From assembly GCA_040905425.1 (NCBI GenBank), contig JBBDRO010000007.1, positions 1-62,048 on the forward strand: 62,048 nucleotides of DNA, in the 5' to 3' direction. Shown here piece after piece: positions 1,175-59,830 of the stretch (position 1 is its first letter; the number at the start of each line of letters is the position of its first letter). The notes beneath the pieces were generated by a model, which saw only the letters and a list, made by a program, of their open reading frames with translations, ran no database searches and had not been told where the DNA came from. Position numbers and translations under genes: made by a program. The DNA comes from Gemmatimonadota bacterium. Its GTDB lineage: Bacteria; Gemmatimonadota; Gemmatimonadetes; Longimicrobiales; RSA9.

Positions 1175-1188
1175 GAAGAGAGCCGTCG

Positions 1189-8126: not shown

Positions 8127-9164
<1,038 letters not shown>

Positions 9165-9165
9165 C

Positions 9166-12242: not shown

Positions 12243-12331
12243 GGACATGAGCCGGCCCGGGGGCCGGCCAGGCAGGGTGAGGGGCATCCGTAACGGCGCG
12301 CATGGCGCGTCAGCCACACAAGAGGAATCCC

Positions 12332-15997
<3,666 letters not shown>

Positions 15998-34189: not shown

Positions 34190-34852
34190 ATGAGCAATCT
34201 CGCCGCCGCTCCCGCTCCCGTTCCCGACCCGGCCGCGCCGGGGGAGCAGGGGACCGCGCCCTGCCTGGTGTGGGAGGTGACCCGAGCCTGCACCCTGGCG
34301 TGTAGCTTCTGCCGCAGCGCCGTCCAGGTGGGCCGCCACTTTCGTGAACTCTCCACGCTCGAAGGGTTCCGCATGCTGAACGAGGCCCGCGGCCTCGGCC
34401 CGGTGCGCGTCCTGCTAGCCGGCGGCGATCCGCTGGAGCGCGAGGATCTGCCTGATCTCGTGGAGCACGCGGCCCGGCAGGGCCTGCGCCCCTGGATCAC
34501 GCTCTGTCCCACCGCCGCAGCCGCTCCCGCCGCGCTGGCGCGGCTGGCCGAGGTGGGGCTGGAGGGTGTCCTGGTGCGTGCGGTGGGCGCCGATGCGGGG
34601 GCGCATGATCAGGCGGCTGGCCTCACAGGCGCGTGGGTTCGCCTGGAGCAGGCCGTGGCGGCGGCCCGGGCGCTCGGCCTGGCGGTGGAGCGCACGGCGG
34701 ACGGACACGTCTCCGACGCATCCGCGCTCCGCGTCGAGTCAACGGGCGTGATCCGGCTGGGTGGCACCGCCGCGGGGGACGTCCGGCGCGATGACGTGGT
34801 CGAGCTCTGGCTCACCCGCCCGGCCACCGGCGGGACCTCCTCGTCTTCGTGA
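34190..34852 (+). CDS. Short radical SAM protein (NirJ/Ahb-like N-terminus), no SPASM cysteines
   Basis: WEVTRACTLACSFC (CxxxCxxC), GGDPL; only 220 aa. Confidence 0.7.
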   Translation: MSNLAAAPAPVPDPAAPGEQGTAPCLVWEVTRACTLACSFCRSAVQVGRHFRELSTLEGFRMLNEARGLGPVRVLLAGGDPLEREDLPDLVEHAARQGLRPWITLCPTAAAAPAALARLAEVGLEGVLVRAVGADAGAHDQAAGLTGAWVRLEQAVAAARALGLAVERTADGHVSDASALRVESTGVIRLGGTAAGDVRRDDVVELWLTRPATGGTSSSS

Positions 34853-40264: not shown

Positions 40265-40452
40265 GGCTTCTCCGGAGATGCGTGGGGTGTGCACGGGAGG
40301 TGAACCGCGCTCCTGGAAAAATGTACGAGCGTGGCCGTTGGGACAACGGTCGCGGCTACGACATCCTTGTGGCGGGCCGGTCCCAGGGCCTACTCTGGAG
40401 ACGGTCATCCCACCCGCAGGCCATTCCGTCACCCTCGGCACCGGAGGAGTCC

Positions 40453-40749
40453 ATGCTCCCGTGGCTCGCAGCCGTCTGCGTCTTCACCACCCTCTCCGCC
40501 CTCTACCTGGGAGGCTTCCCCCTGCGCATCGAGGGCGGTGGCGCGCGCCAGCTCCTGGGATGGGTGCTGAGCGGGGTGCTCTTCCTGGCGGCGTGGCGCC
40601 TGATCCTGGTCGGCACATCGGCCGTGGCCGGGGAAGCGGGCGCCGTGGTGCTGGCGCTCCTGCTCAGCACCCTCCTGATGCCCGTCCTGACCTGGGCGGC
40701 GTTCCGGCCGCTGGGCGTGCGCATCAGCCGGGTGAAGGCGGGCCATTGA
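40453..40749 (+). CDS. Small 3-TM membrane protein
   Basis: GGAGGAG RBS before ATG 40453, 98 aa hydrophobic, overlaps ferredoxin start. Confidence 0.75.
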   Translation: MLPWLAAVCVFTTLSALYLGGFPLRIEGGGARQLLGWVLSGVLFLAAWRLILVGTSAVAGEAGAVVLALLLSTLLMPVLTWAAFRPLGVRISRVKAGH

Positions 40750-40991
40750 GCGCCGTGGAGGCGCGGGTCATCGGCGGGCTGGAACTGCGCATCGACCGCC
40801 TGCTGTGCGTGGGCTTCGAGGACTGCGTCACGGCGGCGCCCACCCTCTTCCGCATGGGGTCGGACGGCATAGCCACGTTCGTGGACGAGCCGGCGGACGT
40901 GGACGAGGCGGGGCTCGTGGCGGCGTGCCGCTCTTGCCCCGTGGACGCGCTCGAGCTGCGTGACGCCGCCGGCCACCTGCTGGCGCCATGA
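40746..40991 (+). CDS. Single-cluster ferredoxin, probably [3Fe-4S]
   Basis: TTGA overlap; IDRLLCVGFEDC (CxxFxxC) and ACRSCPVDAL. Confidence 0.85.
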   Translation: MSAVEARVIGGLELRIDRLLCVGFEDCVTAAPTLFRMGSDGIATFVDEPADVDEAGLVAACRSCPVDALELRDAAGHLLAP

Positions 40992-41890
40992 GCACGTCGG
41001 AGGGTCCGCGCCGCCTGCGTGGCTACCACGACGTGGCGCACGACACCGGCTCGGGGGTCCTGGAGCAGGTCGTGGCGCAGCGGGAGCGTCTGCGGCGCCG
41101 GCTGGCGGACGTGGGCTGCCTGGTGGCGGTGGCGAGCGGCAAGGGCGGCGTGGGCAAGAGCGCCGTGAGCGCCAATCTGGCCGCCCTGCTGGCGGACATG
41201 GGCCACGCCACGGGCGCCGTGGACGCGGACCTGAACGGCCCGTCGCTCGGGCGCATGCTGGGCGCCGCGGGGGTCACGCTGCGCGTGGACGGGGACGGTG
41301 TGCACCCGGCCGTGGGCAACGCCGGTGCGCGGGTGGTGTCCATGGACTTCCTGCAGGAGGGTGACGCCCCCCTGCGCTGGCGCGGCCCCGGGGGGGACGA
41401 CTTCATGTGGCGCGGCGTGGCCGAGACCGGCACGCTCAGGGAATTCCTGGCCGACGTGGCGTGGGGGACGCTGGATCAACTGCTGGTGGACGTGCCGCCC
41501 GGCACCGATCGCATCCAGCGGCTCCTGGAGCTGGTGCCGCGCCCCCATCTGACCCTGCTGGTGACCACCCCGTCCGAGGCGGCCCGGCAGGTGGTGGCGC
41601 GCTCGGCGCGGCTGCTCCGGGAGGCGGGGGTGCCCCGGGTGGGACTGGTGGTCAACATGGCCTCCTTCCACCCCGCGGGAGAGGCGCCCCGCCCGCTCTT
41701 CGCGGCGGACGCCGCCACGCGGCTGGCGGCGGACACGGGGCTCGAGGTCTGGGCCGAGATCCCCTTCGACCCCGAACTGGCCGCGCTCACGGATGCCGGT
41801 GTGGCGTACGCGCTGGCCCGGCCGGAGGCGCCGGCGGCGCGAGCGCTCCACGCGCTGGCGGTGCGGGTGGCCGCCCTGGAGGACGCATGA
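40988..41890 (+). CDS. Mrp/NBP35/ApbC family P-loop ATPase lacking CxxC
   Basis: SGKGGVGKS, DADLNGPS, WG.LD.LLVDVPPGT, VTTPS, VNM, IPFDP. Confidence 0.88.
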   Translation: MSTSEGPRRLRGYHDVAHDTGSGVLEQVVAQRERLRRRLADVGCLVAVASGKGGVGKSAVSANLAALLADMGHATGAVDADLNGPSLGRMLGAAGVTLRVDGDGVHPAVGNAGARVVSMDFLQEGDAPLRWRGPGGDDFMWRGVAETGTLREFLADVAWGTLDQLLVDVPPGTDRIQRLLELVPRPHLTLLVTTPSEAARQVVARSARLLREAGVPRVGLVVNMASFHPAGEAPRPLFAADAATRLAADTGLEVWAEIPFDPELAALTDAGVAYALARPEAPAARALHALAVRVAALEDA

Positions 41891-42378
41891 AGTTCCTCTG
41901 CCTGCCGTGCGACGAGGTGATGACCTTTGCCGAGCGCCAGCTCCCGGGGGACGGCACCCTGTCGGCGGTCTTCGCGTGTCCCGGCTGCGGGCGCGAGATG
42001 GCCATGCTCGCCAACCCGATGGAGACCCAGCTGGTGAGCAGCATGGGCGTGCAGATCGGTGGCCGGGGGGTGCCCGAGCAGCCGCTCGAGGGCACGCGCC
42101 GCGGCATGGCGGGGGGGCGTCCCGACGCCTTCGAGGAAGTGGCCGAGCCGTCCGCCGCGGCGCCCGAAGTGTCCGCCATGGCGAGCCCACCGGGCGCGGC
42201 CGGCGCCGCGCCGAGCTGGAGTCCCGAGGCCGTGGAGCGGCTGCAGCGCGTGCCGTCCTTCGTGCGCGGCATGGTCAAGCGCATCTACGCGGACTACTGC
42301 CGCGAGCGCGCCATCCCCACCATCACCCCCGAGGTCATGGACCGGGCGCGCACCGATCTGGGGCTGGAGGGGATGTGA
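41887..42378 (+). CDS. Zn-ribbon + PCP_red domain protein
   Basis: CLPC..CPGC N-terminus; C-terminal WSPEAVERLQRVPSFVRGMVKR..ITPEVMDRAR. Confidence 0.8.
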   Translation: MKFLCLPCDEVMTFAERQLPGDGTLSAVFACPGCGREMAMLANPMETQLVSSMGVQIGGRGVPEQPLEGTRRGMAGGRPDAFEEVAEPSAAAPEVSAMASPPGAAGAAPSWSPEAVERLQRVPSFVRGMVKRIYADYCRERAIPTITPEVMDRARTDLGLEGM

Positions 42379-43358
42379 GCGGGGCGTGGACGGAGGCGCG
42401 GCAACAAACTGCGCCGCGGACCGGCCCGCGCGACCGCGCCGCGCCCGGCGCAACCACTCCCGACGCTCTGGTCCGCGCGCGCGCCCTCTCCTTCCGCTAC
42501 CGGCCCGACCGCCCGGCGCTCGGGCCCGTGGAGCTGGCCGTGGCGTCCGGTGACATCGTGGCGCTGGCGGGCCCGAACGGCTCCGGCAAGAGCACCCTGC
42601 TGCGCCTCCTGGCCGGTGACCTGCGGCCCACCTCGGGGATCGCGGTGCGCGCGGCGGCGGCCACCGTAGGATACGCGGCCGACGAGGCAGTTCACCTGGA
42701 CGCCCTCGATACGCGGGAGAACGCGGCGTTCTTTGCCCAAGTGGCCGGCGGCGTCGTGGCGGTGGCGGCGGTGGACCGGCTCCTGGACGTCTTCGGGCTG
42801 GGCGCGGAGGCGGCCACGCCGGCGGCCGAGCTCTCCTTCGGTGGGCGGCGCAAGCTGATGCTCGTGGAGGCCCTGGCCCACGGCCCCGACCTGCTGCTTC
42901 TGGATGAGCCCACGGTGGGGCTGGACGCCGCCGCGGTGGCGGCGCTGGAGGTGGAGCTGCGCGCGGCGGCCGGGGCGGGCGGCGCGGTGGTCATGGCCAC
43001 CAACGACCTGTACGCGGCCGAGGCCCTGGCCACGCGGGTGGTCTTTCTCCACGAGGGACGCGTGGTGGCGGACGCGTCGCCGGATGCGTTGCTCGGCCGC
43101 GCGCGGCGCGCCACCCGCATCGAGGTCACGGCGCCGCCGCCGCGCCCGTCCGCCGTGGCCTTTCCTCCCGGGGTGGCGGCGCTGGAGACGCCGGACGGCT
43201 GGACGCTGGAAGCCACGGCGGGCAGCGCGGCGCTACCCGAGGTGTGCGCTGCGCTGGCCGCCGCGGGCGTGCGGGTCGAGACGCTGCGGGTGCGGCCGCC
43301 GGACCTGGCGGACGCCTTCGCGGCCGTGACGGGCACGGCCTGGCGGGAGAGCGCGTGA
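42375..43358 (+). CDS. ABC transporter ATP-binding subunit
   Basis: GPNGSGKST, LSFGGRRK, LLLLDEPT; start uncertain. Confidence 0.85.
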   Translation: MSGAWTEARQQTAPRTGPRDRAAPGATTPDALVRARALSFRYRPDRPALGPVELAVASGDIVALAGPNGSGKSTLLRLLAGDLRPTSGIAVRAAAATVGYAADEAVHLDALDTRENAAFFAQVAGGVVAVAAVDRLLDVFGLGAEAATPAAELSFGGRRKLMLVEALAHGPDLLLLDEPTVGLDAAAVAALEVELRAAAGAGGAVVMATNDLYAAEALATRVVFLHEGRVVADASPDALLGRARRATRIEVTAPPPRPSAVAFPPGVAALETPDGWTLEATAGSAALPEVCAALAAAGVRVETLRVRPPDLADAFAAVTGTAWRESA

Positions 43359-44110
43359 GTGGTCGCACGGCCGGGCTGGCCTTTGTTCTGGAATGGCGCA
43401 CCGCGCTCCGCCGCCGCCGGCTCCTCGTGCTGAACGTGGCCGTCCCCCTGCTACTCGTGCTGCCCATGGCCACGGCCGGCGCGCCGGCCCATCACGCCGC
43501 GGCCGTCTACGCCGTCCTCTTCGTGCTCTTCGGCACCTTCGGCGCGGCCATCCCCCTGCTGCGCGACGCTGAGCGCGGCGTGGTGCGCCGGCTTCTGGTG
43601 GGCGGGCTGCCCGCCGCCCGCCTGCTGCTGGAGCGTGCGGCCGCCGCCGCCCTCGTGGATACGGCCCAACTGACGCCTGCCGCCGTCCTGGTGCTGGCCG
43701 CGGCCGGCGCCCTCCCCTCCGCGCCGCTGCTCCTGGCGGTGCTGCTGGCCACGTTGCTGCTGGCTAACCTCCTGGGTGTGCTGGTGGCTGCGGTGGCCCG
43801 CTCCGTGGCGGAGGGGGCCCTCTTCGCCGCGGTCACCACGCTACTCCTGCTGCACGCCTCGGGCGTCTTCCGCACGCCCCGCCCTGGCAGCCTGGGGGCC
43901 ATCCTGGAGGCCGCGGGGCCGTTCCGGGCGCTGCACGAGACGCTGCTCGAGGCCGTGGCGGGAGGGGCCGTCGGAGGAGCGGGAATGGCCGTGGGAGGGG
44001 CCGCCGGGGTCGGCGCGCTCGCCCTGGGCCTGGTGGCCGTGGCGGCGCTCACAGGGCTCGCGAGTCCCCGGCTCGCCGCCGCGCTGGCCAGGGCGGACGG
44101 GCGTGGCTGA
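43355..44110 (+). CDS. ABC-2 type permease
   Basis: About 6 TMs, RDAERGVVRRLL motif, GTGA overlap with the ATPase gene. Confidence 0.75.
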   Translation: MSGRTAGLAFVLEWRTALRRRRLLVLNVAVPLLLVLPMATAGAPAHHAAAVYAVLFVLFGTFGAAIPLLRDAERGVVRRLLVGGLPAARLLLERAAAAALVDTAQLTPAAVLVLAAAGALPSAPLLLAVLLATLLLANLLGVLVAAVARSVAEGALFAAVTTLLLLHASGVFRTPRPGSLGAILEAAGPFRALHETLLEAVAGGAVGGAGMAVGGAAGVGALALGLVAVAALTGLASPRLAAALARADGRG

Positions 44111-44215
44111 ACGCCGCTGCCGGGTCGCTCACGCGGGGTTCGTGCGGGCGTCGCGCGAACGCCACGCGGGCGCCACGCGGGCGCGCGTTCGGAGCGGCGT
44201 CTCCGGGCACAACGC

Positions 44216-44245
44216 TTGACACGGTCATGAATCGCTTCCTATCGT
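44216..44245 (+). promoter_or_regulatory. Sigma70-like promoter
   Basis: TTGACA (44216-21), 18-bp spacer, TATCGT (44240-45). Confidence 0.55.
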
Positions 44246-44572
44246 GGGTCCACTCCCTCACAGGCGAAGCCGCTCCGCGGACGGAGCACCGCGTCATCGT
44301 CTCGAGGGCCAACCAACAGATACTGATCCCGTCACGATCCCCTTGCATTTCGGGGGGGACCGCGCAGCGGGTAAGCGCTTGGAGGCCACGGCCTCCGTTG
44401 TGGTAGTGAAGTCTCAGCAGGACTGAGTTTCGACCAACGCGCGTCCAACGCGAGTCTGACTTTCAGGATCCGACCGTCAGGGCCGGTGCCGCAGGGAACC
44501 TGCGTGCCTGCACCCCGAACGTGAAGATCCGGGGAGCCGACCGCCGGGGCGCGGCCGCTTACCCCGAGGGTT

Positions 44573-46780
44573 ATGTATCGCGAGCTTTACGTTCCCGTCG
44601 ACAATTCGAGCCTGTCCCACGCCGCCGTGGAGCGCGCCATCGAGCTGGCCAGCAGCTCGGGCGGCACCATCACGGCCAGCCACGTGTACGCGGCCCGGCT
44701 GCACGACGTGCGCTTCCGGCAGCTCGAAACCGGCCTCCCCGCACGCTTCCAGACACCCGACGAGATCAAGCGCCAGCGCAAGATCCACGACAAGCTGATC
44801 GAGAAGGGGCTGCAGCTCATTTCGGACTCCTTCCTGGACACCACGTCGCGCCGCTGCGTGGAGGCCGGCGTGTCGGTACGGCGCCAGCTCCTGGAGGGCA
44901 TCAACTACGAGGAGATTGCCCGCGAGGTGAACGGCGGGGAGGGCCGGCTGCCCAGCCTCATCGGCTTCGACCCCAACATCGCCGACAAGTACGATGGCGG
45001 GGACCGGGTGCGCGGCGACGTGCAGATCGGGGAGAACGGCCGCCTCATCGCCGAGGACGAGGAGCAGGAGGAGCGGCTGGCGGGCAGCAGCGGGCGCAGC
45101 TACGACCTGCTCTGCATCGGCGCCCACGGCATCGGCCGCCAGCCCTATTCCCAGCTCGGCGGCGTGGCCTCGCGGGTGCTGCGGAGCGTGGCCCGGGACG
45201 TCCTGCTCGTGCGCGAGGAGGAGCGCCCGCTCAAGGGCGGTGACTGGATCGTCTGCATCGACGGCTCCGCGTACTCCTACAAGGCGCTCCGCATAGCCCT
45301 CGAGATGGCCGCCGAGTACGGCGCCACGCTGCACGTCTGCTCCGCCTTCGACGTGGAGTACCACCACGTGGTCTTCGGCAACATCAAGGACGTGCTCTCC
45401 GTGCAGGCCTCCAAGGTGTTCAAGTTCGAGGAGCAGGAGGAGCTGCACAACAACATCATCGACAAGGGGCTGCTCAAGCTCTGCCAGGCCAACCTGAAGC
45501 GCGCCGAGGTGATGGCCTCCGAGCACCCCGACGTGGAGGTGAAGACGCAGATCCTGGTGGGCAAACCCTTCCAGTGCATCATGCAGTGGATCGAGGAACT
45601 GGAGCCCTCGCTGCTCGTGCTGGCGCGCCACGGCAGCCACCGCATCGAGGGCACCGAGATGGGCTCGCAGGCGGAGAACCTGTGCCGCCTGGCACCGTGC
45701 AGCGTGCTCCTGGTGGGCACCAGGGACGTGCGTCCCGAGGAGATCCCCTGGATCGAGGAGGACGGGTTCGCCGGGTTGGAATGGGCGCCGGAAGCCGAGG
45801 TGCGTATCCTCCGGGTGCCGCCCTTCGCACTGGGCATCGCGCGCCGCGCCGTGGAGGAGTTCGTCCTGGACAACTACGGGCCGGGGGCCAGCGGGACCTA
45901 CACCGAACCCGGTCGTGAGCACGGCTTCAAAGCGACGTCCCCTGAGCCCGCGTCCGGCGCCGCCAACGGGGCCGGTGCCGCGTCCTCCGCCGGCAACGGC
46001 AACGGGGCCGCCGCGGCCCACACGGACGGCGCGGCCGCCCAGGCTGGCGCCGCGCACGACACGGGCAACGGCAACGGCGCCGTTGCCCCGGTGCCGCTGC
46101 CCACGGTGACCAACGAGCGCCTGGACGAGGCCATTGCCAAGCTGCTCCCCACGCACATGCAGCTCATCATGGGCATCGGCACCGCCGAGGAGCTGGCGCT
46201 GGCCGAGAGCAAGGCCGAGCAGGCCATGGCGCGCACCGTGGTGGAGGGCAGCGACGCCGATGCCGAGCCGGCCACCCCCACCGTCACCACGAAGTGCCCC
46301 TACACCGGCCACGTGCAGACGCGCGAACGTACCGCCGCGGACCCGGTGGTGTGGACGGCGGAGGCGTTCGCCCGGCTGCGCGCCGTGCCGCTCATTGCCC
46401 GGCCGCTGGCCCGCAACACGGTGGAGCGCTTCGGCCGGGAGCACGGCTTCTGGCGCGTCACCACCGCCGTCATGGATGAGAACAAGCAGGCCATGATGGA
46501 GGCCGACGAGTTCGACATGGACACCATGGTGGTCATGTTCCGCGAGCTGCAGACCAAGCAGCTGCGCGCCGAGGCGGAGGGCGTGGACGGCCTGACCCCC
46601 GAGATGCGCCGCTTCATCGAGGAGGCCAAGGCCTCCGGCGTCACCCGCTGCCCCATCCGCGACGTGGTGGAGCAGGCGGACGCCTGCCCGGTGGACCTGA
46701 AGACCGTGTCCCCCGCCGACGCCAGGGCCGCCATGGAGCGCTTCATGGCCGATGAGCAGGAGGCGGGCGCCGGTGACTGA
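44573..46780 (+). CDS. Tandem universal stress protein with two PCP_red domains and three Cys-Pro motifs
   Basis: USP1 YVPVDNS..YDLLCIGAHG..GGVASRVLR; USP2 VCIDGS..MGSQAENLCR; PCP_red at W404 and W594. Confidence 0.85.
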   Translation: MYRELYVPVDNSSLSHAAVERAIELASSSGGTITASHVYAARLHDVRFRQLETGLPARFQTPDEIKRQRKIHDKLIEKGLQLISDSFLDTTSRRCVEAGVSVRRQLLEGINYEEIAREVNGGEGRLPSLIGFDPNIADKYDGGDRVRGDVQIGENGRLIAEDEEQEERLAGSSGRSYDLLCIGAHGIGRQPYSQLGGVASRVLRSVARDVLLVREEERPLKGGDWIVCIDGSAYSYKALRIALEMAAEYGATLHVCSAFDVEYHHVVFGNIKDVLSVQASKVFKFEEQEELHNNIIDKGLLKLCQANLKRAEVMASEHPDVEVKTQILVGKPFQCIMQWIEELEPSLLVLARHGSHRIEGTEMGSQAENLCRLAPCSVLLVGTRDVRPEEIPWIEEDGFAGLEWAPEAEVRILRVPPFALGIARRAVEEFVLDNYGPGASGTYTEPGREHGFKATSPEPASGAANGAGAASSAGNGNGAAAAHTDGAAAQAGAAHDTGNGNGAVAPVPLPTVTNERLDEAIAKLLPTHMQLIMGIGTAEELALAESKAEQAMARTVVEGSDADAEPATPTVTTKCPYTGHVQTRERTAADPVVWTAEAFARLRAVPLIARPLARNTVERFGREHGFWRVTTAVMDENKQAMMEADEFDMDTMVVMFRELQTKQLRAEAEGVDGLTPEMRRFIEEAKASGVTRCPIRDVVEQADACPVDLKTVSPADARAAMERFMADEQEAGAGD

Positions 46781-48110
46781 GGCCGTGACGCCAGAGCATC
46801 TGCCCCATGTGGTGGCGTGGAACCTCACGCGCCGCTGCAACCTGGCCTGCGCCCACTGCTACATCTCCGCAGGCTCGTGGCAGGGCACCGGCACGGACCT
46901 CACCACGGCCGAGGTGCGGCGCATCATGGACGAGATCCTGGCCATGGCCGGCGCGCCGCTCTTCATCCTCTCCGGGGGCGAGCCGCTGCTGCGCGCCGAT
47001 CTGGAAGCCATTGCCGAGCACGCCACCGCCGGCGGCGCCACCGTGGTGGTGGGTACCAACGGGACGCTGCTCAGCGCCGAGCGCATCGGCTCTCTCCGTT
47101 CGGCGGGCGTGCAGGGCGTGGCCGTGAGCGTGGATTCGCTCAACGAGCGCTACCACGACCGCTTCCGCCATGGCGACGGTGCGCTGGCCGACACGCTGGC
47201 GGCGGTGGATCGGCTGGCCGAGGGGGAACTGGATCTGGTGGTGCAGACCACCATCACGCGCGGCAACCGGGCCGAGCTGCCCGCGCTGGCCGCGTGGGCC
47301 GCCGAGCGGGGCGCCGTCTCCCTGAACATCTACTTCCTGGTAGCCACCGGGCGCGCGGCCGGCATGGACGGCCTGGCGCCGGCGGAGAACGAAGCGGTGC
47401 TGGAGGAGATCCTGGCGCTGGAGCGCGCCTACCGCGGCCGCATGATGGTGCGCGCCAAGTGCCAGCCGCAGCTCATGCGCCTGGCCTACGCCGCGCGTGA
47501 GACCGCCGAGGACGCCGTCTCGCCGCTGCTCAACTACGCCACCCGCTGCCCCTGCGGCGTGCACTACTGCCGGGTCACGCCCGAGGGGAAGCTCACGCCC
47601 TGCCCCTACACGCCGGTGGAGGCGGGCGACCTGCGGAGCCAGTCCTTTGCCGACGTCTGGAAGCGCTCGCCGGTGCTGGCGGCGTTGCGCGCCGGTGAGC
47701 TGGGCGGCCGCTGCGGGCGCTGTGAGTACCGGGAGGTGTGCGGCGGCTGCCGCGCCCGCGGGTTCGCGGTGGGGGGCGATCTGCTGGCCGAGGACCCGGC
47801 GTGCGTATACGAGCCGGCCGGCGGCCCGCCGGTGACGCCGGCGCGGACGCTGACCTACGGCGCCGCGCCGGCGGCGCCCACGCTGCCCTGGACCGACGAC
47901 GCCCGCGCCCGCATGGCGCGCGTGCCGGGCTTCGTACGCGCCGTGGTGAGTCAGCGCGTGGAGGGCTATGCGCGCGAGCGCGGCTATGCGTCGGTGACCC
48001 CGGATGTCCTGGATGAGGTGAGGCGCGAGATGCCCGTGGATTTCTCGAAGAAGCTGCCGTTCTTCCTGCGGCGCGCGGCCGCCGGGACCGGCCCGGGGGA
48101 GGACGCGTGA
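46773..48110 (+). CDS. Radical SAM/SPASM protein, AhbD/NirJ-like, with C-terminal PCP_red domain
   Basis: AGGAGG RBS/GTG; WNLTRRCNLACAHCY, SGGEPL, CPCG..PCPY, CGRC..CGGCRARG..EDPAC; tail WTDDARARMARVPGFVR. Confidence 0.88.
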   Translation: MTEAVTPEHLPHVVAWNLTRRCNLACAHCYISAGSWQGTGTDLTTAEVRRIMDEILAMAGAPLFILSGGEPLLRADLEAIAEHATAGGATVVVGTNGTLLSAERIGSLRSAGVQGVAVSVDSLNERYHDRFRHGDGALADTLAAVDRLAEGELDLVVQTTITRGNRAELPALAAWAAERGAVSLNIYFLVATGRAAGMDGLAPAENEAVLEEILALERAYRGRMMVRAKCQPQLMRLAYAARETAEDAVSPLLNYATRCPCGVHYCRVTPEGKLTPCPYTPVEAGDLRSQSFADVWKRSPVLAALRAGELGGRCGRCEYREVCGGCRARGFAVGGDLLAEDPACVYEPAGGPPVTPARTLTYGAAPAAPTLPWTDDARARMARVPGFVRAVVSQRVEGYARERGYASVTPDVLDEVRREMPVDFSKKLPFFLRRAAAGTGPGEDA

Positions 48111-49939
48111 CGATGATGCGCGGCAGGCGGCGGTGGCTCGCCGGGGAGCCGGCGCGGCCACGGAGGATGCGTTGGGCGGCGTGGCTGGCGGCAGCCCTCG
48201 TCGCTTGCATGGTGGAGCCGGCGGCGGCCCAGGAAGCCGCCCGTCAGTACGGCCATTTCCCGGGCATCGGCAGCCGTGCCGCGGTGTGGATCGCGGCGCA
48301 GCTCCACCTCATGTTCGCGGCCTTCGTGCTGGGCGTGCCCATGTTCGCCGTGGTGGTGGAGGCCATTGGCATTGCCAAGCAGGACAGCCGCTTCGACAAC
48401 CTGGCCAAGGAGTTCACCCGCCTGCTGGTGATTGCCTACAGCGCCACGGCCATCTGGGGCGCGGTGCTGGTCTTCCTGCTGACCACCCTCTATCCGGCCT
48501 TCTGGGGCCACCTGTCGGAGATCTTCGAAGTCTCCATGTGGATCTACGTGGGCCTCTTCTTCATCGAGTCCTTCACCCTCTACCTCTACTACTACGGCTG
48601 GGCGCGCTGGAAGAAGGGGCGCGCCAAGCTGGTGCATCTGGGGCTGGGCATCCTGCTCAACGTGTGGGGCACCACGGTGATGTTTATCGCGGACTCGTGG
48701 TTGAGCTACATGATGAGCCCGCCGGCCAATGTCACTCCGGACACCGCGCCGGGCATGGTGCAGCTGTGGAGCGCCATTGCCAACGCCACGTGGATGCCCA
48801 TCAACATCCACCGCCTCATAGCCAACGTGGTCTTCGGCGGCGCGGTGGTGGGCGGCTATGCCGCGTACCGCTTCCTGAACGCCAAGAGCAATGCCGAGCG
48901 CGCCCACTACGACTGGATGGGCTACATCGGCAACTTCATTGCCATCAGCGCGCTGCTCATCCTGCCCTTCGCGGGCTACTGGCTGGGGCGGGAGATCTAC
49001 GCCTACAACCAGTCCATGGGCATCACCATGATGGGTGGCTTCATGAGCTGGCTGTGGATCATCCAGGCCTTCCTCATCGGGGTGCTCTTCCTGGCTGCCA
49101 ACTACTACTTGTGGCTGGGGCTCGGCCGCATCCCGGGCGGTGAGCGCTTCGTGCCCTACACCAAGTGGATGCTGCTCGTGCTGGTGGTGGGCGTGGTGGT
49201 GTGGGCCACGCCGCACACCATGATCGCCGATCGGGACGAGCTGGTGGCCATGGGCGGCACGCACCACCCGTTCCTGGGGGTGCTGGGCGTCATGAGCGCC
49301 AAGAATACGGCGGTCAACCTGATGATCCTGACCACCTTCCTCTCCTTCCTTATGTACCGGCGGGCCAACAAGCGCCCGGTCGTGGCGTGGGCGCGCACCG
49401 GCACGGTGGCGCAGGCCACGGCGCTCCTGCTGGCGTCCGTGGTGGTGATCTTCTACGGCGTCTACGGCTACTTCGTCCCCGCCAACGTGCGCATCGGCTT
49501 CAGCGTGTACCAGGTGGCCGCCGTGCTGCTGGCCATCGTGGCGGTGGTGGTGCTGGACATGCTGCTCTCGCGGGGCGCCGAATCGCGCGGGGAGATCCGC
49601 TGGGGGGAGATGCCGGAGCGCGCCCAGTACGCCCTCCTGGTGCTGGTGGTGACCTTCACCTGGCTCATGGGGCTCATGGGCTTCGCGCGCAGCGGCATCC
49701 GCCAGCACTGGCACATCTGGGAGGTCATGCGGGACACCAGCGAGTGGGCGGCTACCCCCGCGCTGGGCTACGCCGGCACCGTGATCAGCGCGTGCGTCCT
49801 GCTCTTCCTGGGCATGATCGGTTTCATCTTCTGGCTGGGCAGTCTCATCGAGGAGCCGGCCTACGCCGAGGATCCCGCGCCTGGCCGCGAGGAGCCCCCA
49901 CCGCCCACGCTCGAGGCTGCGCTGGGAGGCACGCCATGA
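48107..49939 (+). CDS. Cytochrome bd subunit I (CydA)-like protein, atypical, no CydB
   Basis: QLHLMFAAFVLG (first heme His), FFIESFTLYLYYYGW, NIHRLIAN (second heme His), SGIRQHW at the GRQPW position; more than 12 TMs; no long Q-loop. Confidence 0.8.
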   Translation: MTMMRGRRRWLAGEPARPRRMRWAAWLAAALVACMVEPAAAQEAARQYGHFPGIGSRAAVWIAAQLHLMFAAFVLGVPMFAVVVEAIGIAKQDSRFDNLAKEFTRLLVIAYSATAIWGAVLVFLLTTLYPAFWGHLSEIFEVSMWIYVGLFFIESFTLYLYYYGWARWKKGRAKLVHLGLGILLNVWGTTVMFIADSWLSYMMSPPANVTPDTAPGMVQLWSAIANATWMPINIHRLIANVVFGGAVVGGYAAYRFLNAKSNAERAHYDWMGYIGNFIAISALLILPFAGYWLGREIYAYNQSMGITMMGGFMSWLWIIQAFLIGVLFLAANYYLWLGLGRIPGGERFVPYTKWMLLVLVVGVVVWATPHTMIADRDELVAMGGTHHPFLGVLGVMSAKNTAVNLMILTTFLSFLMYRRANKRPVVAWARTGTVAQATALLLASVVVIFYGVYGYFVPANVRIGFSVYQVAAVLLAIVAVVVLDMLLSRGAESRGEIRWGEMPERAQYALLVLVVTFTWLMGLMGFARSGIRQHWHIWEVMRDTSEWAATPALGYAGTVISACVLLFLGMIGFIFWLGSLIEEPAYAEDPAPGREEPPPPTLEAALGGTP

Positions 49940-50727
49940 CCAACCTCAAGATCTTCGCGGTGGTGGTGGGCACCATCCTGCTCTACGCGGCGCTGGCCAA
50001 CGCCATCCCACAGGTGCAGTCCGCCGTCCCGCAGGAGCTGGTCCTGGCGGGCGACGTGACGCCCGAGCAGCTCGTGGCCGCCGGCGAAGACCTGTTCAAC
50101 GGCGCCGGCGGCTGTACCGCCTGTCACGGCCTGGGCGCGCGTGCGCCCAACCTGATCGGCGACGAGGCGGGCACGGGCCCCATCGGCGTGCGCTGCGCCG
50201 AGCGTGTGCCGGCCACGGATTGCCGGAGCTACCTGTGGGAGTCCATGACGGATCCCAGCGCTTACGTGGTGGAGGGCTACGACCCCATCATGCCCGACGC
50301 GCGCCGCACCCTCTCCGAGCCGCAGATCTGGACGCTCGTGGCCTTCCTGCAGAACCAGGGCGGCACGGTGTCGGTGACCGCGGAGGACGTGGCGGTGGAG
50401 GAGGAGGCCGCGGCCGGCGGCGCGGCGGGCGGGGGCGGCGCTCCGGCCCTGGCCGGCGGCAGCACGGATCCGGAGGAGCTGCTCCAGGCGGCCACCTGCC
50501 TGGTGTGCCACCAGCTCGGTGATCAGGGCGCCGCCATCGGACCGCCCTTCGACGGCATGGGCGCCCGCCTGGACGCGGACGCCATCCGGCGCGGCATCCT
50601 CCTGCCCAACGCGGACACCGCGGCCGGCTTCGCCGCCATGGCGGGGACCATGCCCGCCACCTTCGGCGAGCAGCTGAACGCCACGCAGCTCGAGTCCATC
50701 GTGCAGTACCTGGCGGGGCTGCGGTGA
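49936..50727 (+). CDS. Membrane-anchored diheme cytochrome c
   Basis: CTACH..IMP and CLVCH..TMP; N-terminal TM; GGAGG RBS, ATGA overlap. Confidence 0.9.
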   Translation: MTNLKIFAVVVGTILLYAALANAIPQVQSAVPQELVLAGDVTPEQLVAAGEDLFNGAGGCTACHGLGARAPNLIGDEAGTGPIGVRCAERVPATDCRSYLWESMTDPSAYVVEGYDPIMPDARRTLSEPQIWTLVAFLQNQGGTVSVTAEDVAVEEEAAAGGAAGGGGAPALAGGSTDPEELLQAATCLVCHQLGDQGAAIGPPFDGMGARLDADAIRRGILLPNADTAAGFAAMAGTMPATFGEQLNATQLESIVQYLAGLR

Positions 50728-50773: not shown

Positions 50774-51571
50774 ATGAGCCGTCTCAGGCATCCCTTCTGG
50801 CAGACGGTCCTGCTGCTCGTGGCCGCCTACGTCCTCATCCGCTTCGGCATTGCCTACCTGCCGCAGGTGGTGGGCATGCGCAGCGCCCCGGTGCCGAGCA
50901 GCGTGGTGCTGCAGTACATGGCCACGGTGCTGGTGGGGTTGATCCTCTACGTGAGCGCGGACGCACAGCGCTGGCGGCGCTTTCGTGAGCCCATCCACGC
51001 GGCGCTCGTGGAGCCGGACAAGCGCATGGTGCGCATGGCGCTCCTGGTGGCGGTACCGCTGCTGGTGGGCTTCCTCACCTACGACAGCGTGCGTCCCACC
51101 GTGGCGGCGCCCGCGTCGCTGCGCTCCATCCACCCGGCGCCGCCGACCCAGATCACCGTCCGGGGGCGCACCGTGGCGCTGGCCGGCCTGGAGAACCCGC
51201 TGCGCTCCACGGGCTCGATGGAGGAGCACTACGAGGAGGGCAAGCGCGTCTACTACCAGAACTGCCTGCCCTGCCACGGGGACTATCTGGACGGGCAGGG
51301 CCACTATGCGCCCGCCTTCAACCCCGCGCCGCTCTCCTTCCAGGACAACGGCACCATCGCGCAGCTCTCCGAGAGCTTCGTGTTCTGGCGGGTGGTGAAG
51401 GGCGGGCCCGGCCTGCCGGCCGAGGGCGGTCCTGCCAATTCCGCCATGCCGGCCTGGGAGGACATCCTCACCGAGGAGGAGATCTGGGCCGTGATCCTCT
51501 TCCTCTACGAGCAGACGCCGTGGGACCCGCGCGTCATGGAGGTCCACGGGGCCGCCGAGGGGGAGCATTGA
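50774..51571 (+). CDS. 3-TM monoheme cytochrome c
   Basis: Three N-terminal TMs, CLPCHG, SAMPAW distal Met. Confidence 0.9.
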   Translation: MSRLRHPFWQTVLLLVAAYVLIRFGIAYLPQVVGMRSAPVPSSVVLQYMATVLVGLILYVSADAQRWRRFREPIHAALVEPDKRMVRMALLVAVPLLVGFLTYDSVRPTVAAPASLRSIHPAPPTQITVRGRTVALAGLENPLRSTGSMEEHYEEGKRVYYQNCLPCHGDYLDGQGHYAPAFNPAPLSFQDNGTIAQLSESFVFWRVVKGGPGLPAEGGPANSAMPAWEDILTEEEIWAVILFLYEQTPWDPRVMEVHGAAEGEH

Positions 51572-53163
51572 GCGGGCGCGGCGGACGGAGCGGGCGCGCC
51601 TCGAGGGTGCGCATGGGCCGCGTGGCCGGCATGGCTACCGTCGCTTGCTTGCTGGGCGTGGGGCCGCTGGTGGCGCAGCAGGAGGGCCATCCCGGTAAAC
51701 CGGTCTACGACAGATGGTGCGCGGGCTGCCACGGCGTGGACGGTCAGGGCCAGGGGCCGGCCGCCGCCTACATGCTGCCGCGGCCGCGCGATTTCACGCA
51801 GGCACTCTACCAGATCCGCACCACGGCGAGCGGCTCCATCCCCACGGACGCTGACATCCGTAAGATCATCGACGAAGGGATGCCGGGCACCGCCATGCCG
51901 GGCTGGGAGGAGGCGCTGAGCAGCGCGGAGCGGGATGCGCTGGTGGATTACCTGAAGACCTTCTCCCGCTACTTCGAGACGGACGAGCCGCGGGTGCTCG
52001 AATTCGGCGGCGCGCCCGGGGTGAGTGACGAACTGCTGGAGGCGGGCAGAGAGGCCTACCAGACGCTGGAGTGCTTCAAGTGCCACGGCCAGGCCGGCCG
52101 CGGTGACGGCGCGTCGGCCCCCACGCAGGCGGACGCCGACGACTTCCCGGTGCGGCCCGCGGACCTCACGCAGCCCTGGCTCTTCAGCGGCGGTGCTTCG
52201 GTGGAGGAGATCTACCGGCGCTTCCTCACCGGTCTGGACGGCACCCCCATGCCGTCCTACGCCGATGTGCTGGAAGCGGGTGTGGTGACAGAGGAACAGC
52301 TCTGGGGGCTGGCCCACTACGTTCGTGCGCTGGGCGGTGACGCGCCCCGCGTACGTGAGGTCGTGGCGGCCGCCCGGGTCGAGGACGTCCTGCCCACCGC
52401 CGCCGATGACGCGGCCTGGGAGGACGCGGAGCGCTTCTGGATCCCGCTGGCCGGGCAGATCATCGAGGAGCCGCGCTGGTTCGCGCCGGCCGTAACGGGG
52501 GTCTGGGTGCAGGCGCTGCACGATGGCCGGGAGCTGGCGCTGCGCGTGAGCTGGAACGATCGCTCGGAGAGCCCCGATCCCGAGTGGGCCGGCTGGCGCG
52601 ATCAGGTGAACGCCATCATGGCGCCCGGCGCGGGCGAGCAGGCCGGGGGCGAAGCGTCCGACGGCATGGCCGTCTGGTTCCCGCCGCCGGACGCGCGGGA
52701 CCGCCCCTACTTCCTCATGGGCAGCGAGCGCGCGCCGGTGCGCGTGTGGCACTGGGACAGCCGGAGCGGCGCGGTGGAGCGCCTCGGCCGCGGCCTCGGC
52801 AACCTCGAATCTTTGCCGGCTGACGAGGGCGCGCTACAGGGCCAGGCCGAATTCGATCAGGGTCGCTGGAGCGTGCTGCTGCGTCGTCCGTTGCTCGACG
52901 GTGACAGCGCGGCCGCCACCCTGATTCCCGCGGGCCAGCCGGTCCCCATGGCGTTCATGGTCTGGGATGGGGACAACGCCGAGGCCGGCACGCGCGGGGC
53001 GGTCAGCAGCTGGTACTACGTCCAACTCACGGAGCCCACGCCACCCACCGTGTACGCCCTGCCGGTGCTGGCCGTGCTCCTCACCGCCGCGCTGGGCCTG
53101 CTCGTGGTACGCCGGGCGCAGCGGCGCGTACGCACCCCGGCCGCGGCTCCGGCCGCGGCCTGA
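51568..53163 (+). CDS. Diheme cytochrome c fused to ethylbenzene-dehydrogenase-gamma-like (DOMON heme) domain, C-terminal TM
   Basis: CAGCHG..PRDFT..GTAMP; CFKCHG..GTPMP; LRVSWND, DGMAVWFP, PYFLMG, FMVWDG. Start uncertain (51568, 51613 or 51631). Confidence 0.82.
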   Translation: MSGRGGRSGRASRVRMGRVAGMATVACLLGVGPLVAQQEGHPGKPVYDRWCAGCHGVDGQGQGPAAAYMLPRPRDFTQALYQIRTTASGSIPTDADIRKIIDEGMPGTAMPGWEEALSSAERDALVDYLKTFSRYFETDEPRVLEFGGAPGVSDELLEAGREAYQTLECFKCHGQAGRGDGASAPTQADADDFPVRPADLTQPWLFSGGASVEEIYRRFLTGLDGTPMPSYADVLEAGVVTEEQLWGLAHYVRALGGDAPRVREVVAAARVEDVLPTAADDAAWEDAERFWIPLAGQIIEEPRWFAPAVTGVWVQALHDGRELALRVSWNDRSESPDPEWAGWRDQVNAIMAPGAGEQAGGEASDGMAVWFPPPDARDRPYFLMGSERAPVRVWHWDSRSGAVERLGRGLGNLESLPADEGALQGQAEFDQGRWSVLLRRPLLDGDSAAATLIPAGQPVPMAFMVWDGDNAEAGTRGAVSSWYYVQLTEPTPPTVYALPVLAVLLTAALGLLVVRRAQRRVRTPAAAPAAA

Positions 53164-53201
53164 TGGCTCACCATCTGAACCGAAACTCGAGTGGAGGCAG
53201 C

Positions 53202-54092
53202 ATGTTGAATCTGACGCGCAATACCCGCACCCTGGCCGTCCTCTTCACCTGCACGGCGCTGGCCGCCTGCGGCGGTGGGGACGAAGCCGCCGACGCCGGC
53301 GCGGATGACACCGGCGCCGACGCCCAGCCCCAGGTGGTGGCGGACGCCGGCAGCATCACCGGCAGCATCGACTTCACCGGTACGCCGCCCACGCCCGAGC
53401 CCATCGACATGAGCGCCGAGCCGGATTGCGCCGCCAAGCATGACGGCACGCCCACGCAGCGTGCCGTGGTGGTCAACAACGGCAAGCTGGCCAACGTCTT
53501 CGTGCGCATCAGCCAGGGTGTCCAGGGCGGCGGGGGCGCGCCCTCCGGGAGCGCCGCGGTGGATCAGGACGGCTGCGTCTACGACCCGCACGTGGTGGGT
53601 GTGCAGACCGGCCAGGAGGTGGAGTTCCAGAACAGCGACGGCCTGCTGCACAACATCAAGGCCAGCCCGGCCAACAACCGGCCGTTCAACATCAGCCAGC
53701 CCACCACCATGACCTCGCGGCAGACCTTCAATTCGCCCGAGGTCATGATCCCGGTGGTCTGTGACGTCCACGGCTGGATGAACATGTACATCGGCGTGGT
53801 GGACCATCCCTACTTCGACACGAGCGGCCAGGACGGCTCCTTCACGATCGCCAACGTGGCGCCTGGCACCTACACGGTGGAGACCTGGCACGAGGTCTAT
53901 GGCGTGCAGAGCCAGCAGGTGACGGTGGAGCCCAACGGCACCGCCGAGCTTACCTTTGCCTATGACGCCGGCATGGCTGCCACGGCCGTGGTACCGCTCG
54001 GTGATCCGATCGATCCGCACGGCGTACACGCGTCCCCCGGCGCGGGGGTTTCCCATCCGGCAGCGCACGCCACCGCGGCCGGCTCACGCTGA
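53202..54092 (+). CDS. Cupredoxin-like lipoprotein with carboxypeptidase-regulatory-like domain
   Basis: GGAGG RBS, lipobox LAAC, NSDGLLHNI and CDVHGWM (H,C,H,M type-1 Cu set), GTYTVETWHE. Confidence 0.8.
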   Translation: MLNLTRNTRTLAVLFTCTALAACGGGDEAADAGADDTGADAQPQVVADAGSITGSIDFTGTPPTPEPIDMSAEPDCAAKHDGTPTQRAVVVNNGKLANVFVRISQGVQGGGGAPSGSAAVDQDGCVYDPHVVGVQTGQEVEFQNSDGLLHNIKASPANNRPFNISQPTTMTSRQTFNSPEVMIPVVCDVHGWMNMYIGVVDHPYFDTSGQDGSFTIANVAPGTYTVETWHEVYGVQSQQVTVEPNGTAELTFAYDAGMAATAVVPLGDPIDPHGVHASPGAGVSHPAAHATAAGSR

Positions 54093-56644: not shown

Positions 56645-56648
56645 GGCC

Positions 56649-57963: not shown

Positions 57964-57964
57964 C

Positions 57965-58933: not shown

Positions 58934-59157
58934 GCCCTTCCCTGGTGGCGTTCCACAGGGTGCTCATCATGGCCGGCATCCTCTTCTGCCTGGGCTACGG
59001 AGGGTGGGAAGCGTACGCCTGGCTGCGCGGCGGCGGCGGAGGCAGCCTGGTGCTGGCCACGGTCTTCGGCCTGCTGGCGGCCGGGCTGGCGGTCTACCTC
59101 TGGAATCTGGACCGCGTGCTGCACCCCCGCGGGCGGGGTGGAGATGGCGGCACCTGA
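58930..59157 (+). CDS. Small 2-TM protein
   Basis: ATGA overlap, 75 aa, FHRVLI then two hydrophobic helices. Confidence 0.7.
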   Translation: MSPSLVAFHRVLIMAGILFCLGYGGWEAYAWLRGGGGGSLVLATVFGLLAAGLAVYLWNLDRVLHPRGRGGDGGT

Positions 59158-59830
59158 AGGCCTGCTCGGGGCGCTGCTCGGGCGCTTCGGGCGGGGCCCG
59201 GTGGCTGTGGTCGGCGGTAGCGTTCTTCTGGCCGTGTTCCTGGTGGGGCTCACGCTGCACGATCCGCCCAGCGTTGCCACCTACCCGGTGAGCCCGGCGC
59301 GCCCCGCGGCAGCGGACAGTACCCTCGTGGGCCCGGTGGTGCATACGGTGGACGCCACCGCCGAAGGCACGTGGGTGCGCTTTGACTTCTCGCGCGGCGC
59401 GGTGGTGCCGCCCGACGACCCGCTGGGCTGGGACATAGCCTTCCGACGCTTTGCCATCCTGGTCAACGGTGGCCCCGGCTATCCGGGCGCCGGGGGAGCC
59501 GTCGATCTGGGTGAGGTGCCCTTCGACGCGGTGGACCAGGCGCCCGCCGCAGGTTACCAGGGCAGCGTCACCCACCCCGATTCCGCCAACCCCGCACTGG
59601 ACCGCTGGTACGAGTATGGCTGGTCCACCCACCTGCTGACGCCCCGGCCGCGCGTCTACGCGGTGCGCACGGCGGACGGCCGCTACGCCAAGGTGCAGGT
59701 CCTTGGCTACTACTGCCCCGGCCCCCGCCCCGGTTGCCTCACCTTCCGCTACGTGTACCAGGGCAGCGGCGGACGCCACTTCACGCGCCCATCCACGGTT
59801 GCGTCCCCGCCGGACAGCACAGTCCACTGA
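59144..59830 (+). CDS. hmuY: HmuY family heme-binding protein, TM-anchored
   Basis: WVRFDF, WDIAFRR..ILVNGG, WYEY...HLL, VYAVRTADGRYAKVQVLGYY, LTFRY. Confidence 0.82.
   Translation: MAAPEGLLGALLGRFGRGPVAVVGGSVLLAVFLVGLTLHDPPSVATYPVSPARPAAADSTLVGPVVHTVDATAEGTWVRFDFSRGAVVPPDDPLGWDIAFRRFAILVNGGPGYPGAGGAVDLGEVPFDAVDQAPAAGYQGSVTHPDSANPALDRWYEYGWSTHLLTPRPRVYAVRTADGRYAKVQVLGYYCPGPRPGCLTFRYVYQGSGGRHFTRPSTVASPPDSTVH

Follow-up and report, generated by a model that had tools for sequence, protein, structure and literature searches.

PCP_red-domain genes beside terminal oxidase genes in a Gemmatimonadota bacterium: a possible module for haem synthesis and hand-over

In dark protochlorophyllide reductase (DPOR), a C-terminal helix of the BchB subunit covers the cavity for protochlorophyllide (Pchlide), a tetrapyrrole (PMC4071322, in excerpt), and domains of the same sequence family, PCP_red (PF08369), occur in the genes described here. 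These lie in a stretch of 62,048 nucleotides from a Gemmatimonadota bacterium (GenBank assembly GCA_040905425.1, contig JBBDRO010000007.1, positions 1 to 62,048 of the forward strand; hereafter the window), in which four copies of PCP_red are spread over a zinc-ribbon protein (Zn-PCP_red), a tandem universal stress protein (USP-PCP_red) and a radical SAM/SPASM protein (rSAM-PCP_red), upstream of genes for a bd-like membrane protein, cytochromes c and a haem-copper oxidase. The names carried by the closest homologues put the organism near Longimicrobiales within Gemmatimonadota. Two further described systems are close to parts of this locus. The enzyme AhbD occurs in organisms that use the coproporphyrin pathway and have none of the other Ahb enzymes, where it is an oxygen-independent coprohaem decarboxylase outside the Ahb pathway (PMC13564367, Chem Rev 2026, in excerpt). 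The bd-like cluster of Nitrospina, Nitrospira and Kuenenia combines a 14-helix CydA-like protein without a quinol loop with mono- and dihaem cytochromes c, an NxrC-like protein, cupredoxins and a zinc-finger protein, and may serve nitrite oxidizers as an alternative complex III (ACIII; Lucker 2013, PMC3578206); CydA-like subunits of the OR-N1/N2 types likewise have 14 helices and carry no haem c motif (10.1101/2021.01.16.426971). The available portions of these two papers mention no PCP_red, USP, Mrp or radical SAM gene, and a term search of the available text of the second (the Murali preprint), supplementary operon tables aside, returned no 'radical SAM', 'haem biosynthesis', 'NirJ' or 'ahbD'.

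The genes of the window appear to be the form taken in Gemmatimonadota by a cytoplasmic module that is widespread and undescribed and is not tied to one complex. Its domain content, gene order, neighbourhood, motif conservation and conservation across phyla were observed directly; that it synthesizes haem and hands it over to membrane respiratory complexes in general is a reading to which we give not quite an even chance. Literature searches on PCP_red, on the bd-like, USP, rSAM and Mrp genes and on the structures 2L09 and 2KRU returned no paper relevant to the module, and NCBIfam names none of its special members; a Myxococcus USP paper from these searches concerns an unrelated, single-domain USP.

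Recurrence of the gene set beside respiratory genes

Related loci were gathered with a query alignment led by a Poribacteria member, which was meant to bring this small clade to the top and so keep places for other phyla. Of at least 600 matching stretches, the best 80 were kept with 10-kb flanks; 32 are from Poribacteria or Poribacteria-like bacteria, none is from Gemmatimonadota, and the other 48 come from Rhodothermales, Methylomirabilota/Rokubacteria, Entotheonella/Tectomicrobia, Latescibacterota, Calditrichia, Binatia, Acidobacteriota, Chloroflexota, Dormibacterota, Planctomycetota, an actinomycete and further bacteria, making about 14 taxon groups overall. Genes were counted by tblastn with the window proteins and a few locus proteins, presence or absence being scored within 10 kb of the USP gene, and 13 of the 80 loci were annotated with Pfam.

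A core set recurs in which the USP-PCP_red gene is followed by a gene for an Mrp-type ATPase and then by Zn-PCP_red, often together with rSAM-PCP_red and an ABC-2 transporter pair. Mrp genes were found in 62 of the 80 loci, Zn-PCP_red in 53, rSAM-PCP_red in 41 and the ABC ATPase in 25, and in 51 of the 52 loci that hold both, Mrp is directly followed by Zn-PCP_red. Respiratory genes, one or more per locus, lie near the module in 71 loci: COX1/COX3 in 54, CtaB in 41, a cytochrome c-EB_dh fusion in 26, a CydA-like gene in 21 (16 of the 14-helix type and five shorter pairs), ActB of ACIII in five and cytochrome b in four. Relatives of the lipoprotein encoded just upstream of COX2 in the window stand beside COX2 or the USP gene in 27 loci. 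Six of the nine loci without a respiratory gene are incomplete, and the remaining three (L039, L047 and L048) have near-full flanks. These neighbourhoods indicate that the module goes with terminal-oxidase superclusters in general, and with haem-copper oxidase more often than with the bd-like gene.

In Poribacteria the genes form the array ABC-ABC-COX2-COX1-CtaA-CtaB-COX3-COX3-COX4-SCO1-USP-...-Mrp-ZnPCP-...-rSAM, followed by DUF420, and L024 additionally contains a ChdC-like gene (Chlor_dismutase). Pfam thus places CtaA, CtaB, SCO1 and DUF420 within the same co-directional arrays as the module; relatives of these four and of ChdC were not found in the window. In Methylomirabilis the order is USP-rSAM-Mrp-ZnPCP-CydA-like-cytochromes c, beside ACIII-like genes, and in Chloroflexota and Dormibacterota it is USP, ABC-2 pair, CydA-like, cytochrome b, CydA-like. 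In these last two groups, in Binatia and in the actinomycete, the USP gene is found with the ABC-2 pair and CydA-like genes, but Mrp and rSAM are missing. In L032 the module lies 3' of Rieske, cytochrome b and multihaem c genes. Loci in other phyla, together with the distant relatives of the USP protein described below, rule out that the module is a peculiarity of Gemmatimonadota.

Further genes were seen within these arrays. A protein with four PCP_red copies in a row is encoded between the rSAM and Mrp genes in Rokubacteria/Methylomirabilota (L043 14650-15894, L055 13130-14773, L064 13030-14901), and in Poribacteria loci a protein of about 140 residues with a weak C-terminal PCP_red match follows the rSAM gene. 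A small CopD-like membrane protein, for which no counterpart was detectable in the window, is often encoded between Zn-PCP_red and rSAM (L032 13779-14285, L035 4291-4746, L024 14992-15549).

An earlier note on this DNA had proposed a dedicated pathway making or inserting a haem for the downstream bd-like (CydA-like) complex, which is taken here to mean a special haem and that complex only. As it had observed, the two are coupled in the window, where the stop codon of the rSAM-PCP_red gene overlaps the CydA-like start by 4 nt (48107-48110), and the co-occurrence that it had expected in other genomes is found in the 21 loci with a CydA-like gene, which come from nine taxon groups (Rhodothermales, Calditrichia, Latescibacterota, Methylomirabilota, Acidobacteriota, Chloroflexota, Dormibacterota, Binatia and an actinomycete). 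Eleven further loci possibly belong with these: the cytochrome c-EB_dh gene is present with no CydA-like gene in view, and in 11 of 11 it starts no more than 1.2 kb from an end of the retrieved stretch, so that a CydA-like gene may lie just outside. The Chloroflexota-type loci, in which the USP gene forms one contiguous stretch with the ABC-2 pair and two CydA-like genes, also fit dedication to that complex. It is difficult, however, to reconcile with the haem-copper oxidase that adjoins the module in 54 loci, 48 of which have no CydA-like gene in view, with the embedding of the Poribacteria module in a COX2-COX1-CtaA-CtaB-COX3-COX4-SCO1 array, with the bc-type cytochrome b of four loci and the Rieske and cytochrome b genes upstream in L032, or with the three near-fully flanked loci that contain no respiratory gene at all. 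The gene list of that note had also omitted COX2-COX1-COX3, which the window itself holds at 54132-57308. Service to the bd-like complex only is consequently improbable.

PCP_red proteins and their partners

As the window has 72% G+C, reading frames were set by third-position G+C (GC3 frame plot), and the proteins of 52 open reading frames (ORFs) were compared with Pfam-A; curated NCBIfam models and their cut-offs were used as well. The repeated motif had been read in the earlier note as PCP_red, with a hidden Markov model (HMM) scan suggested as the check, and the identification holds. PF08369 exceeds its gathering cut-off of 32.5 bits in Zn-PCP_red (residues 111-155, E = 3.7e-13, 49.7 bits), in USP-PCP_red (two stretches, the better at residues 594-638, E = 9e-13, 48.5 bits) and in rSAM-PCP_red (residues 380-424, E = 3.5e-16, 59.4 bits). 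An HMM of our own, built from 51 copies in orthologues and run on all six-frame ORFs of at least 50 residues, found exactly four copies in the window, at 42214-42363, 45776-45862, 46349-46495 and 47883-48035, in the three proteins and at the places given before. The first copy of the USP protein (45776-46135 overall) is split, with helices 1-2 at residues 404-435, a disordered low-complexity insert at 442-501 (pLDDT <50) and helix 3 at 514-524, which accounts for the long range of 45782-46135 in the earlier description.

A profile of the Zn-PCP_red family run against PDB sequences matched the C-termini of BchB/ChlB (2xdq_B, residues 456-510, E = 2.6e-8; also 8vqi_B, 2ynm_D and 3aek_B) and two stand-alone domains solved by nuclear magnetic resonance, 2l09 and 2kru. 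The absence of bch/chl families, reported earlier, was borne out among the 52 window ORFs scanned against Pfam. A role in tetrapyrrole handling, which had been raised as an alternative to docking, is plausible given the position of the BchB helix over the Pchlide cavity and the families nearest to the radical SAM protein (see below), all of which are haem-modifying.

A haem-regulatory motif consists of Cys-Pro followed by a hydrophobic residue and binds haem through the thiolate. Of 50 Zn-PCP_red proteins, 47 have Cys-Pro at a distance of up to 45 residues before PCP_red, and of 41 rSAM-PCP_red proteins none has it; at least one copy is so preceded in 60 of 81 USP proteins. In the Zn-PCP_red family a K-C-P-F-T stretch stands about 20 residues before the domain. 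Among Gemmatimonadota-type USP proteins, all 120 have K-C-P-Y-T before the second PCP_red and two more Cys-Pro motifs in the C-terminal tail. The Zn-PCP_red protein of the window lacks the motif that its orthologues carry.

The USP protein of the window begins with two Usp domains (44573-45800), followed by PCP_red copy 1, K-C-P-Y-T (Cys575, nt 46295-46297), PCP_red copy 2 and a tail with the two further Cys-Pro motifs (Cys693 and Cys705). Both Usp domains contain long helical-hairpin inserts that were modelled with pLDDT >90 and carry His, Asp, Arg and Gln residues, among others, that are invariant in 97 sequences (H37, H44, D45, R47, F48, E52, Q68, R69 and H72 in the first; D260, H264, F268, Q288 and H292 in the second), and no known USP function accounts for these inserts. 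One search returned more than 2,390 relatives, the best 120 of which (the closest, from Gemmatimonadota) are 71-82% identical, and a comparison with 50%-identity representatives gave 3,293 matches at E ≤1e-3 and 236 at E ≤1e-30. Two Usp domains and one to six PCP_red copies are present in 28 of 30 distant full-length relatives, and eight of the 30 also contain a rubredoxin-like zinc domain, combining the features of Zn-PCP_red and USP-PCP_red in one chain; source names among the distant relatives include Methylomirabilales, Rokubacteria, NC10, Nitrospinaceae and Poribacteria.

These properties invite a regulatory reading, in which USP-PCP_red would sense haem, redox or energy state and, through its Usp domains and its Cys-Pro/PCP_red units, tune how the neighbouring oxidases are assembled or how active they are when oxygen is scarce, with the other PCP_red proteins as its partners and nothing being carried. 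The predicted core has the tandem USP fold (best Foldseek targets 3cis, 3ab8, 4r2j and 5cb0, with target-normalized TM-scores of 0.70-0.83) and resembles the ATP-binding regulators Rv2623, TTHA0350 and UspE. The nucleotide-binding motif G-2x-G-9x-G-S/T is intact in the family consensus, but each Usp domain of the window departs from it by one residue, which counts against this reading. The conserved Cys-Pro motifs would suit a haem sensor, and no other member of the set is as constant as the USP gene, which is retained in four groups with the ABC-2 pair and CydA-like genes when Mrp and rSAM are missing. In Nitrospira marina, USPs encoded next to electron-transport operons rise at low oxygen and are read as regulators (PMC8115632, in excerpt), a likeness in the USP and its neighbourhood. 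What a sensor leaves without account is the AhbD-like enzyme, the Mrp ATPase and Zn-PCP_red in a fixed order across phyla, and the three to five PCP_red copies per USP protein suit a holding capacity better than sensing. We consider regulation unlikely, while granting it serious attention.

The radical SAM protein has its best NCBIfam scores with AhbD (TIGR04545, 279.1 bits) and NirJ2 (TIGR04055, 275 bits), each against a cut-off of 500, followed by TIGR04053, NirJ, AhbC and NirJ1, and only then by MftC (135 bits) and PqqE (111 bits). All 27 orthologues scanned gave the same ranking, with NirJ2/AhbD at the top (best AhbD E = 2.3e-98) and peptide maturases far lower, and by these profiles the protein belongs to the AhbD/NirJ2-like, haem-modifying clade. 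The radical SAM motif CxxxCxxC (C29, C33, C36) and the SPASM cysteines for two auxiliary [4Fe-4S] clusters (C237, C266, C284, C321, C324, C330, C333 and C351) are invariant in 27 sequences, and the model of the window protein (pLDDT 83, pTM 0.84) is confident in the PCP_red helices as well. Its closest solved folds, by fold search and by sequence search of the PDB, are the SPASM enzymes PqqE, SkfB, SuiB, CteB and anSME, which mature proteins or ribosomally synthesized and post-translationally modified peptides, and an automatic Atlas cluster labels rSAM-SPASM-PCP_red proteins 'MftC family'. Both would agree with an enzyme that modifies a protein or peptide (a cross-link or a side chain, in an oxidase subunit or a small neighbour), PCP_red being the shared recognition or docking domain. 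However, no AhbD or NirJ structure was present among the solved structures searched by fold and by sequence, so that the fold search could not favour these enzymes, while the sequence profiles point consistently to AhbD/NirJ2. No conserved short precursor-like ORF was noticed by the rSAM gene, though no systematic search was made. A protein maturase is accordingly an outside candidate, to which the predicted contact described next lends some support since it suggests protein-protein contacts within the set.

The Mrp-type ATPase has the deviant Walker A sequence GKGGVGKS, within S-G-K-G-G-V-G-K-S invariant in 31 sequences, and scores 176 bits with MrpORP (cut-off 450) and 118 bits with ApbC (cut-off 348). 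The window protein lacks the cluster-bridging CxxC and has a single Cys in its entire length, as the earlier note had pointed out; as a mark of the system, by which that note had proposed to profile it, the loss does not stand, since 53 of the 62 orthologues in the loci keep the motif. Among the 120 closest homologues 69 keep CxxC and 51 share the loss, which rules out a sequencing artefact; the loss is a real, recurrent lineage variant. Folding two Mrp chains together with Zn-PCP_red gave a score of 0.56 (runs 0.56, 0.54 and 0.70; best control 0.02), with contacts that agree by at least 87% between runs and a partner pLDDT of at least 69. In the calibration, 116 of 157 solved complexes came up to the mark used, as did 2 of 215 mismatched pairs, and scores up to 0.60 comprise only 18 of the 157 solved complexes along with both mismatches that passed. 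The model thus weakly suggests contact between an Mrp dimer and Zn-PCP_red. The proposal that PCP_red is a docking tag has this weak in-silico pass behind it, which comes without an interface and so does not assign the docking to PCP_red.

Gene map of the window and the downstream respiratory unit

All genes between 40453 and 57308 lie on the + strand (Table 1), and 4-nt overlaps join g2/g3, g3/g4, g4/g5, g5/g6 and g9/g10, in addition to the overlap of g8 with g9 described above. Pfam and NCBIfam agree with the ferredoxin, Mrp ATPase, ABC ATPase and ABC-2 permease named as neighbours in the earlier note. The ferredoxin has the Cys pattern C-x6-C...C-x2-C-P and gave no tblastn match in the 80 related loci; g1 likewise had none there and is probably lineage-specific. 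One promoter-like site was observed in the gap upstream of the USP gene against 0.1 expected from shuffles, and an Rfam scan of the window detected no RNA family.

Table 1. Features of the module, the downstream respiratory unit and a nearby HmuY-like gene in the window
Feature	Coordinates	Strand	Evidence
g1, small membrane protein, 98 aa	40453..40749	+	frame backed by GC3 plot; no Pfam/NCBIfam family
g2, single-cluster ferredoxin (Fer4_15/Fer4_13)	40755..40991	+	PF13459 5.7e-9, PF13370 2e-8
g3, Mrp/NBP35/NUBPL-type P-loop ATPase	40988..41890	+	PF10609 6.7e-56, 189.9 bits
g4, Zn-ribbon + linker + PCP_red	41887..42378	+	Pfam, own HMM; Zn-ribbon Cys C5, C8, C31, C34
g5, ABC ATPase, ABC-2/DrrA type	42375..43358	+	PF00005 8.4e-22; DrrA 125 bits; CcmA 100.9 bits (cut-off 131.6)
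g6, ABC-2 permease	43355..44110	+	PF01061 1.3e-10
Promoter-like site TTGACA, 18 nt, TATCGT	44216..44245	+	consensus match only, in 462-nt gap 5' of USP gene
g7, tandem USP + two PCP_red copies	44573..46780	+	PF00582 1e-34; PF08369
g8, radical SAM + SPASM + C-terminal PCP_red	46752..48110	+	Pfam Radical_SAM, SPASM, PF08369
g9, CydA-like 'bd-like' membrane protein	48107..49939	+	PF01654 4.2e-18, 65.6 bits
g10, dihaem cytochrome c	49936-50727	+	2 CxxCH
g11, monohaem cytochrome c	50774-51571	+	1 CxxCH
g12, dihaem c fused to EB_dh/NxrC-like haem b domain, C-terminal anchor	51613-53163	+	2 CxxCH
g13, lipoprotein with CarboxypepD_reg-like beta-sandwich	53163..54092	+	Pfam; C-x2-H-x2-M stretch in translation
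COX2	54132-54860	+	PF00116
COX1	54857-56644	+	PF00115, 7.4e-151
COX3	56649-57308	+	PF00510
HmuY-like protein, haem-binding lipoprotein family	59138..59830	+	PF14064 1.2e-15

Hydropathy gives the CydA-like protein g9 about 13 hydrophobic spans, its sequence contains no CxxCH, and it corresponds to the 14-helix OR-N type of the literature. COX2-COX1-COX3 form a complete A-type operon directly 3' of the bd-like/cytochrome c unit on the same strand, and linkage of such a unit with an A-type oxidase was also seen in Rhodothermales, Latescibacterota and Methylomirabilota loci. The lipoprotein g13 is possibly a cupredoxin-like carrier; the spacing of its C-x2-H-x2-M stretch, near the C-terminus, is that of cupredoxin copper ligands. 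An HmuY-like gene also stands near the module in two Entotheonella/Tectomicrobia loci (L047 14101-14778, and L052).

Elsewhere, the window contains a Bat/MoxR-type cluster at 218-15997 (+) with two DUF4159 proteins, a TPR/peptidase MA protein, a MoxR AAA_3 ATPase, DUF58, BatA-VWA and DUF4175, a PabB-PabC-like fusion of chorismate-binding and class IV aminotransferase domains (24324-26087), a short radical SAM ORF of 220 residues upstream of the module (34190-34852), a divergent M16 (insulinase-type) peptidase of 946 residues just upstream of it (37454-40294, - strand) and, 3' of COX3, a 341-residue ORF with no family match (57908-58933).

A possible route for haem and its relation to known systems

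Haem handling for membrane respiratory enzymes is suggested by the position of the BchB helix over its cavity, the haem-modifying clade of the radical SAM protein, the Cys-Pro motifs and the company of CtaA, CtaB, SCO1, DUF420, HmuY-like and ChdC-like genes; from these we infer haem binding, the chemistry of the enzyme, the direction of transfer and the client complexes. The radical SAM/SPASM enzyme would act late in the pathway on an iron tetrapyrrole, in an oxygen-independent step that is most likely coprohaem to haem b, although a further modification of haem is possible, and its C-terminal PCP_red would cover the macrocycle like a lid, in the way that the homologous C-terminus of BchB covers protochlorophyllide. 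Zn-PCP_red and the multi-copy USP-PCP_red would accept the product and hold it or pass it towards apo-oxidases, the PCP_red units preceded by Cys-Pro possibly contributing a thiolate ligand of the haem-regulatory-motif kind. The tandem USP core, if it binds nucleotide, and the Mrp-type ATPase may gate or drive the transfer; an Mrp with CxxC may also supply the [4Fe-4S] clusters of the enzyme, and the ABC-2 pair may carry a tetrapyrrole or a thiol across the membrane.

In its most specific form, this scheme makes PCP_red, usually primed by Cys-Pro, the repeating unit of a new haem relay, in which an AhbD-like enzyme loads USP-PCP_red, and Mrp with its Zn-PCP_red adaptor delivers haem to the apo-subunits of aa3-type, bd-like and bc-type complexes. 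We hold this version to be doubtful, at appreciably lower confidence than haem synthesis and hand-over as such. If true, it would supply a missing general route of haem b to membrane respiratory enzymes in many non-model phyla. The path of haem from the last biosynthetic enzyme to membrane oxidases is poorly understood in most bacteria, and the gene set, spread over about 14 taxon groups beside genes for terminal oxidases, haem A synthesis and copper chaperones, makes the question testable. It also gives a first functional lead on PCP_red outside the chlorophyll enzyme from which alone it has been known, on thousands of proteins labelled 'universal stress protein', and on an AhbD-like enzyme in aerobic phyla.

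Several observations weigh against haem synthesis and hand-over. Other genes of haem biosynthesis are nearly absent from the loci, a ChdC-like gene being found in one of 80. The rSAM-PCP_red gene was seen in 41 of the 80 loci, and in at least 18 Poribacteria loci it is missing from the 10-kb flanks although the other genes of the module are there; with 279 bits against 500, and no orthologue among the 27 shown to reach 500, the enzyme is not an AhbD equivalogue by NCBI's rule. Since the window lacks both Cys-Pro in Zn-PCP_red and CxxC in Mrp, neither motif is essential everywhere. USP proteins beside respiratory operons elsewhere have been read as regulators (PMC8115632, in excerpt). The 80 loci, finally, are those that scored best among at least 600 matches to a Poribacteria-led query, so that their counts are not independent and do not represent a random sample.

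Of the described systems, DPOR shares with the module the sequence family of its BchB/ChlB C-terminal domain. The module differs in having no nitrogenase-like BchN/BchB core and no bch/chl genes, and in that its PCP_red domains are parts of USP, Zn-ribbon and rSAM proteins, which may contain as many as five of them, and often have a Cys-Pro motif before them. With AhbD and NirJ2 the radical SAM protein has CxxxCxxC and the SPASM cysteines in common, to which it adds a C-terminal PCP_red, and it is encoded among oxidase genes rather than haem-synthesis genes. The ATPase shares PF10609 and the deviant Walker A with the Mrp/NBP35/ApbC/NUBPL iron-sulphur carriers, and most of its orthologues keep CxxC; the window protein nevertheless falls below the curated cut-offs, and the Mrp of the module is paired with a Zn-PCP_red gene. 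The downstream unit (g9-g13) matches the 'bd-like oxidase'/OR-N cluster in its CydA-like protein, mono- and dihaem cytochromes c, NxrC-like haem b protein and cupredoxin-like protein, but is joined to an A-type haem-copper oxidase and not to NXR.

Closest in proposed function are the systems that bring haem into membrane respiratory enzymes, among them HemW, a radical-SAM-like protein, and CydDC, an ABC system needed for cytochrome bd. The job suggested here for the module is the same as that of HemW, CydDC, Surf1 and CtaM, and a DUF420 (CtaM-like) gene lies in the same arrays. With HemW, CydDC and Surf1, however, the module has no sequence relationship beyond a generic similarity of ABC ATPases, and its PCP_red and USP parts are without counterpart there.

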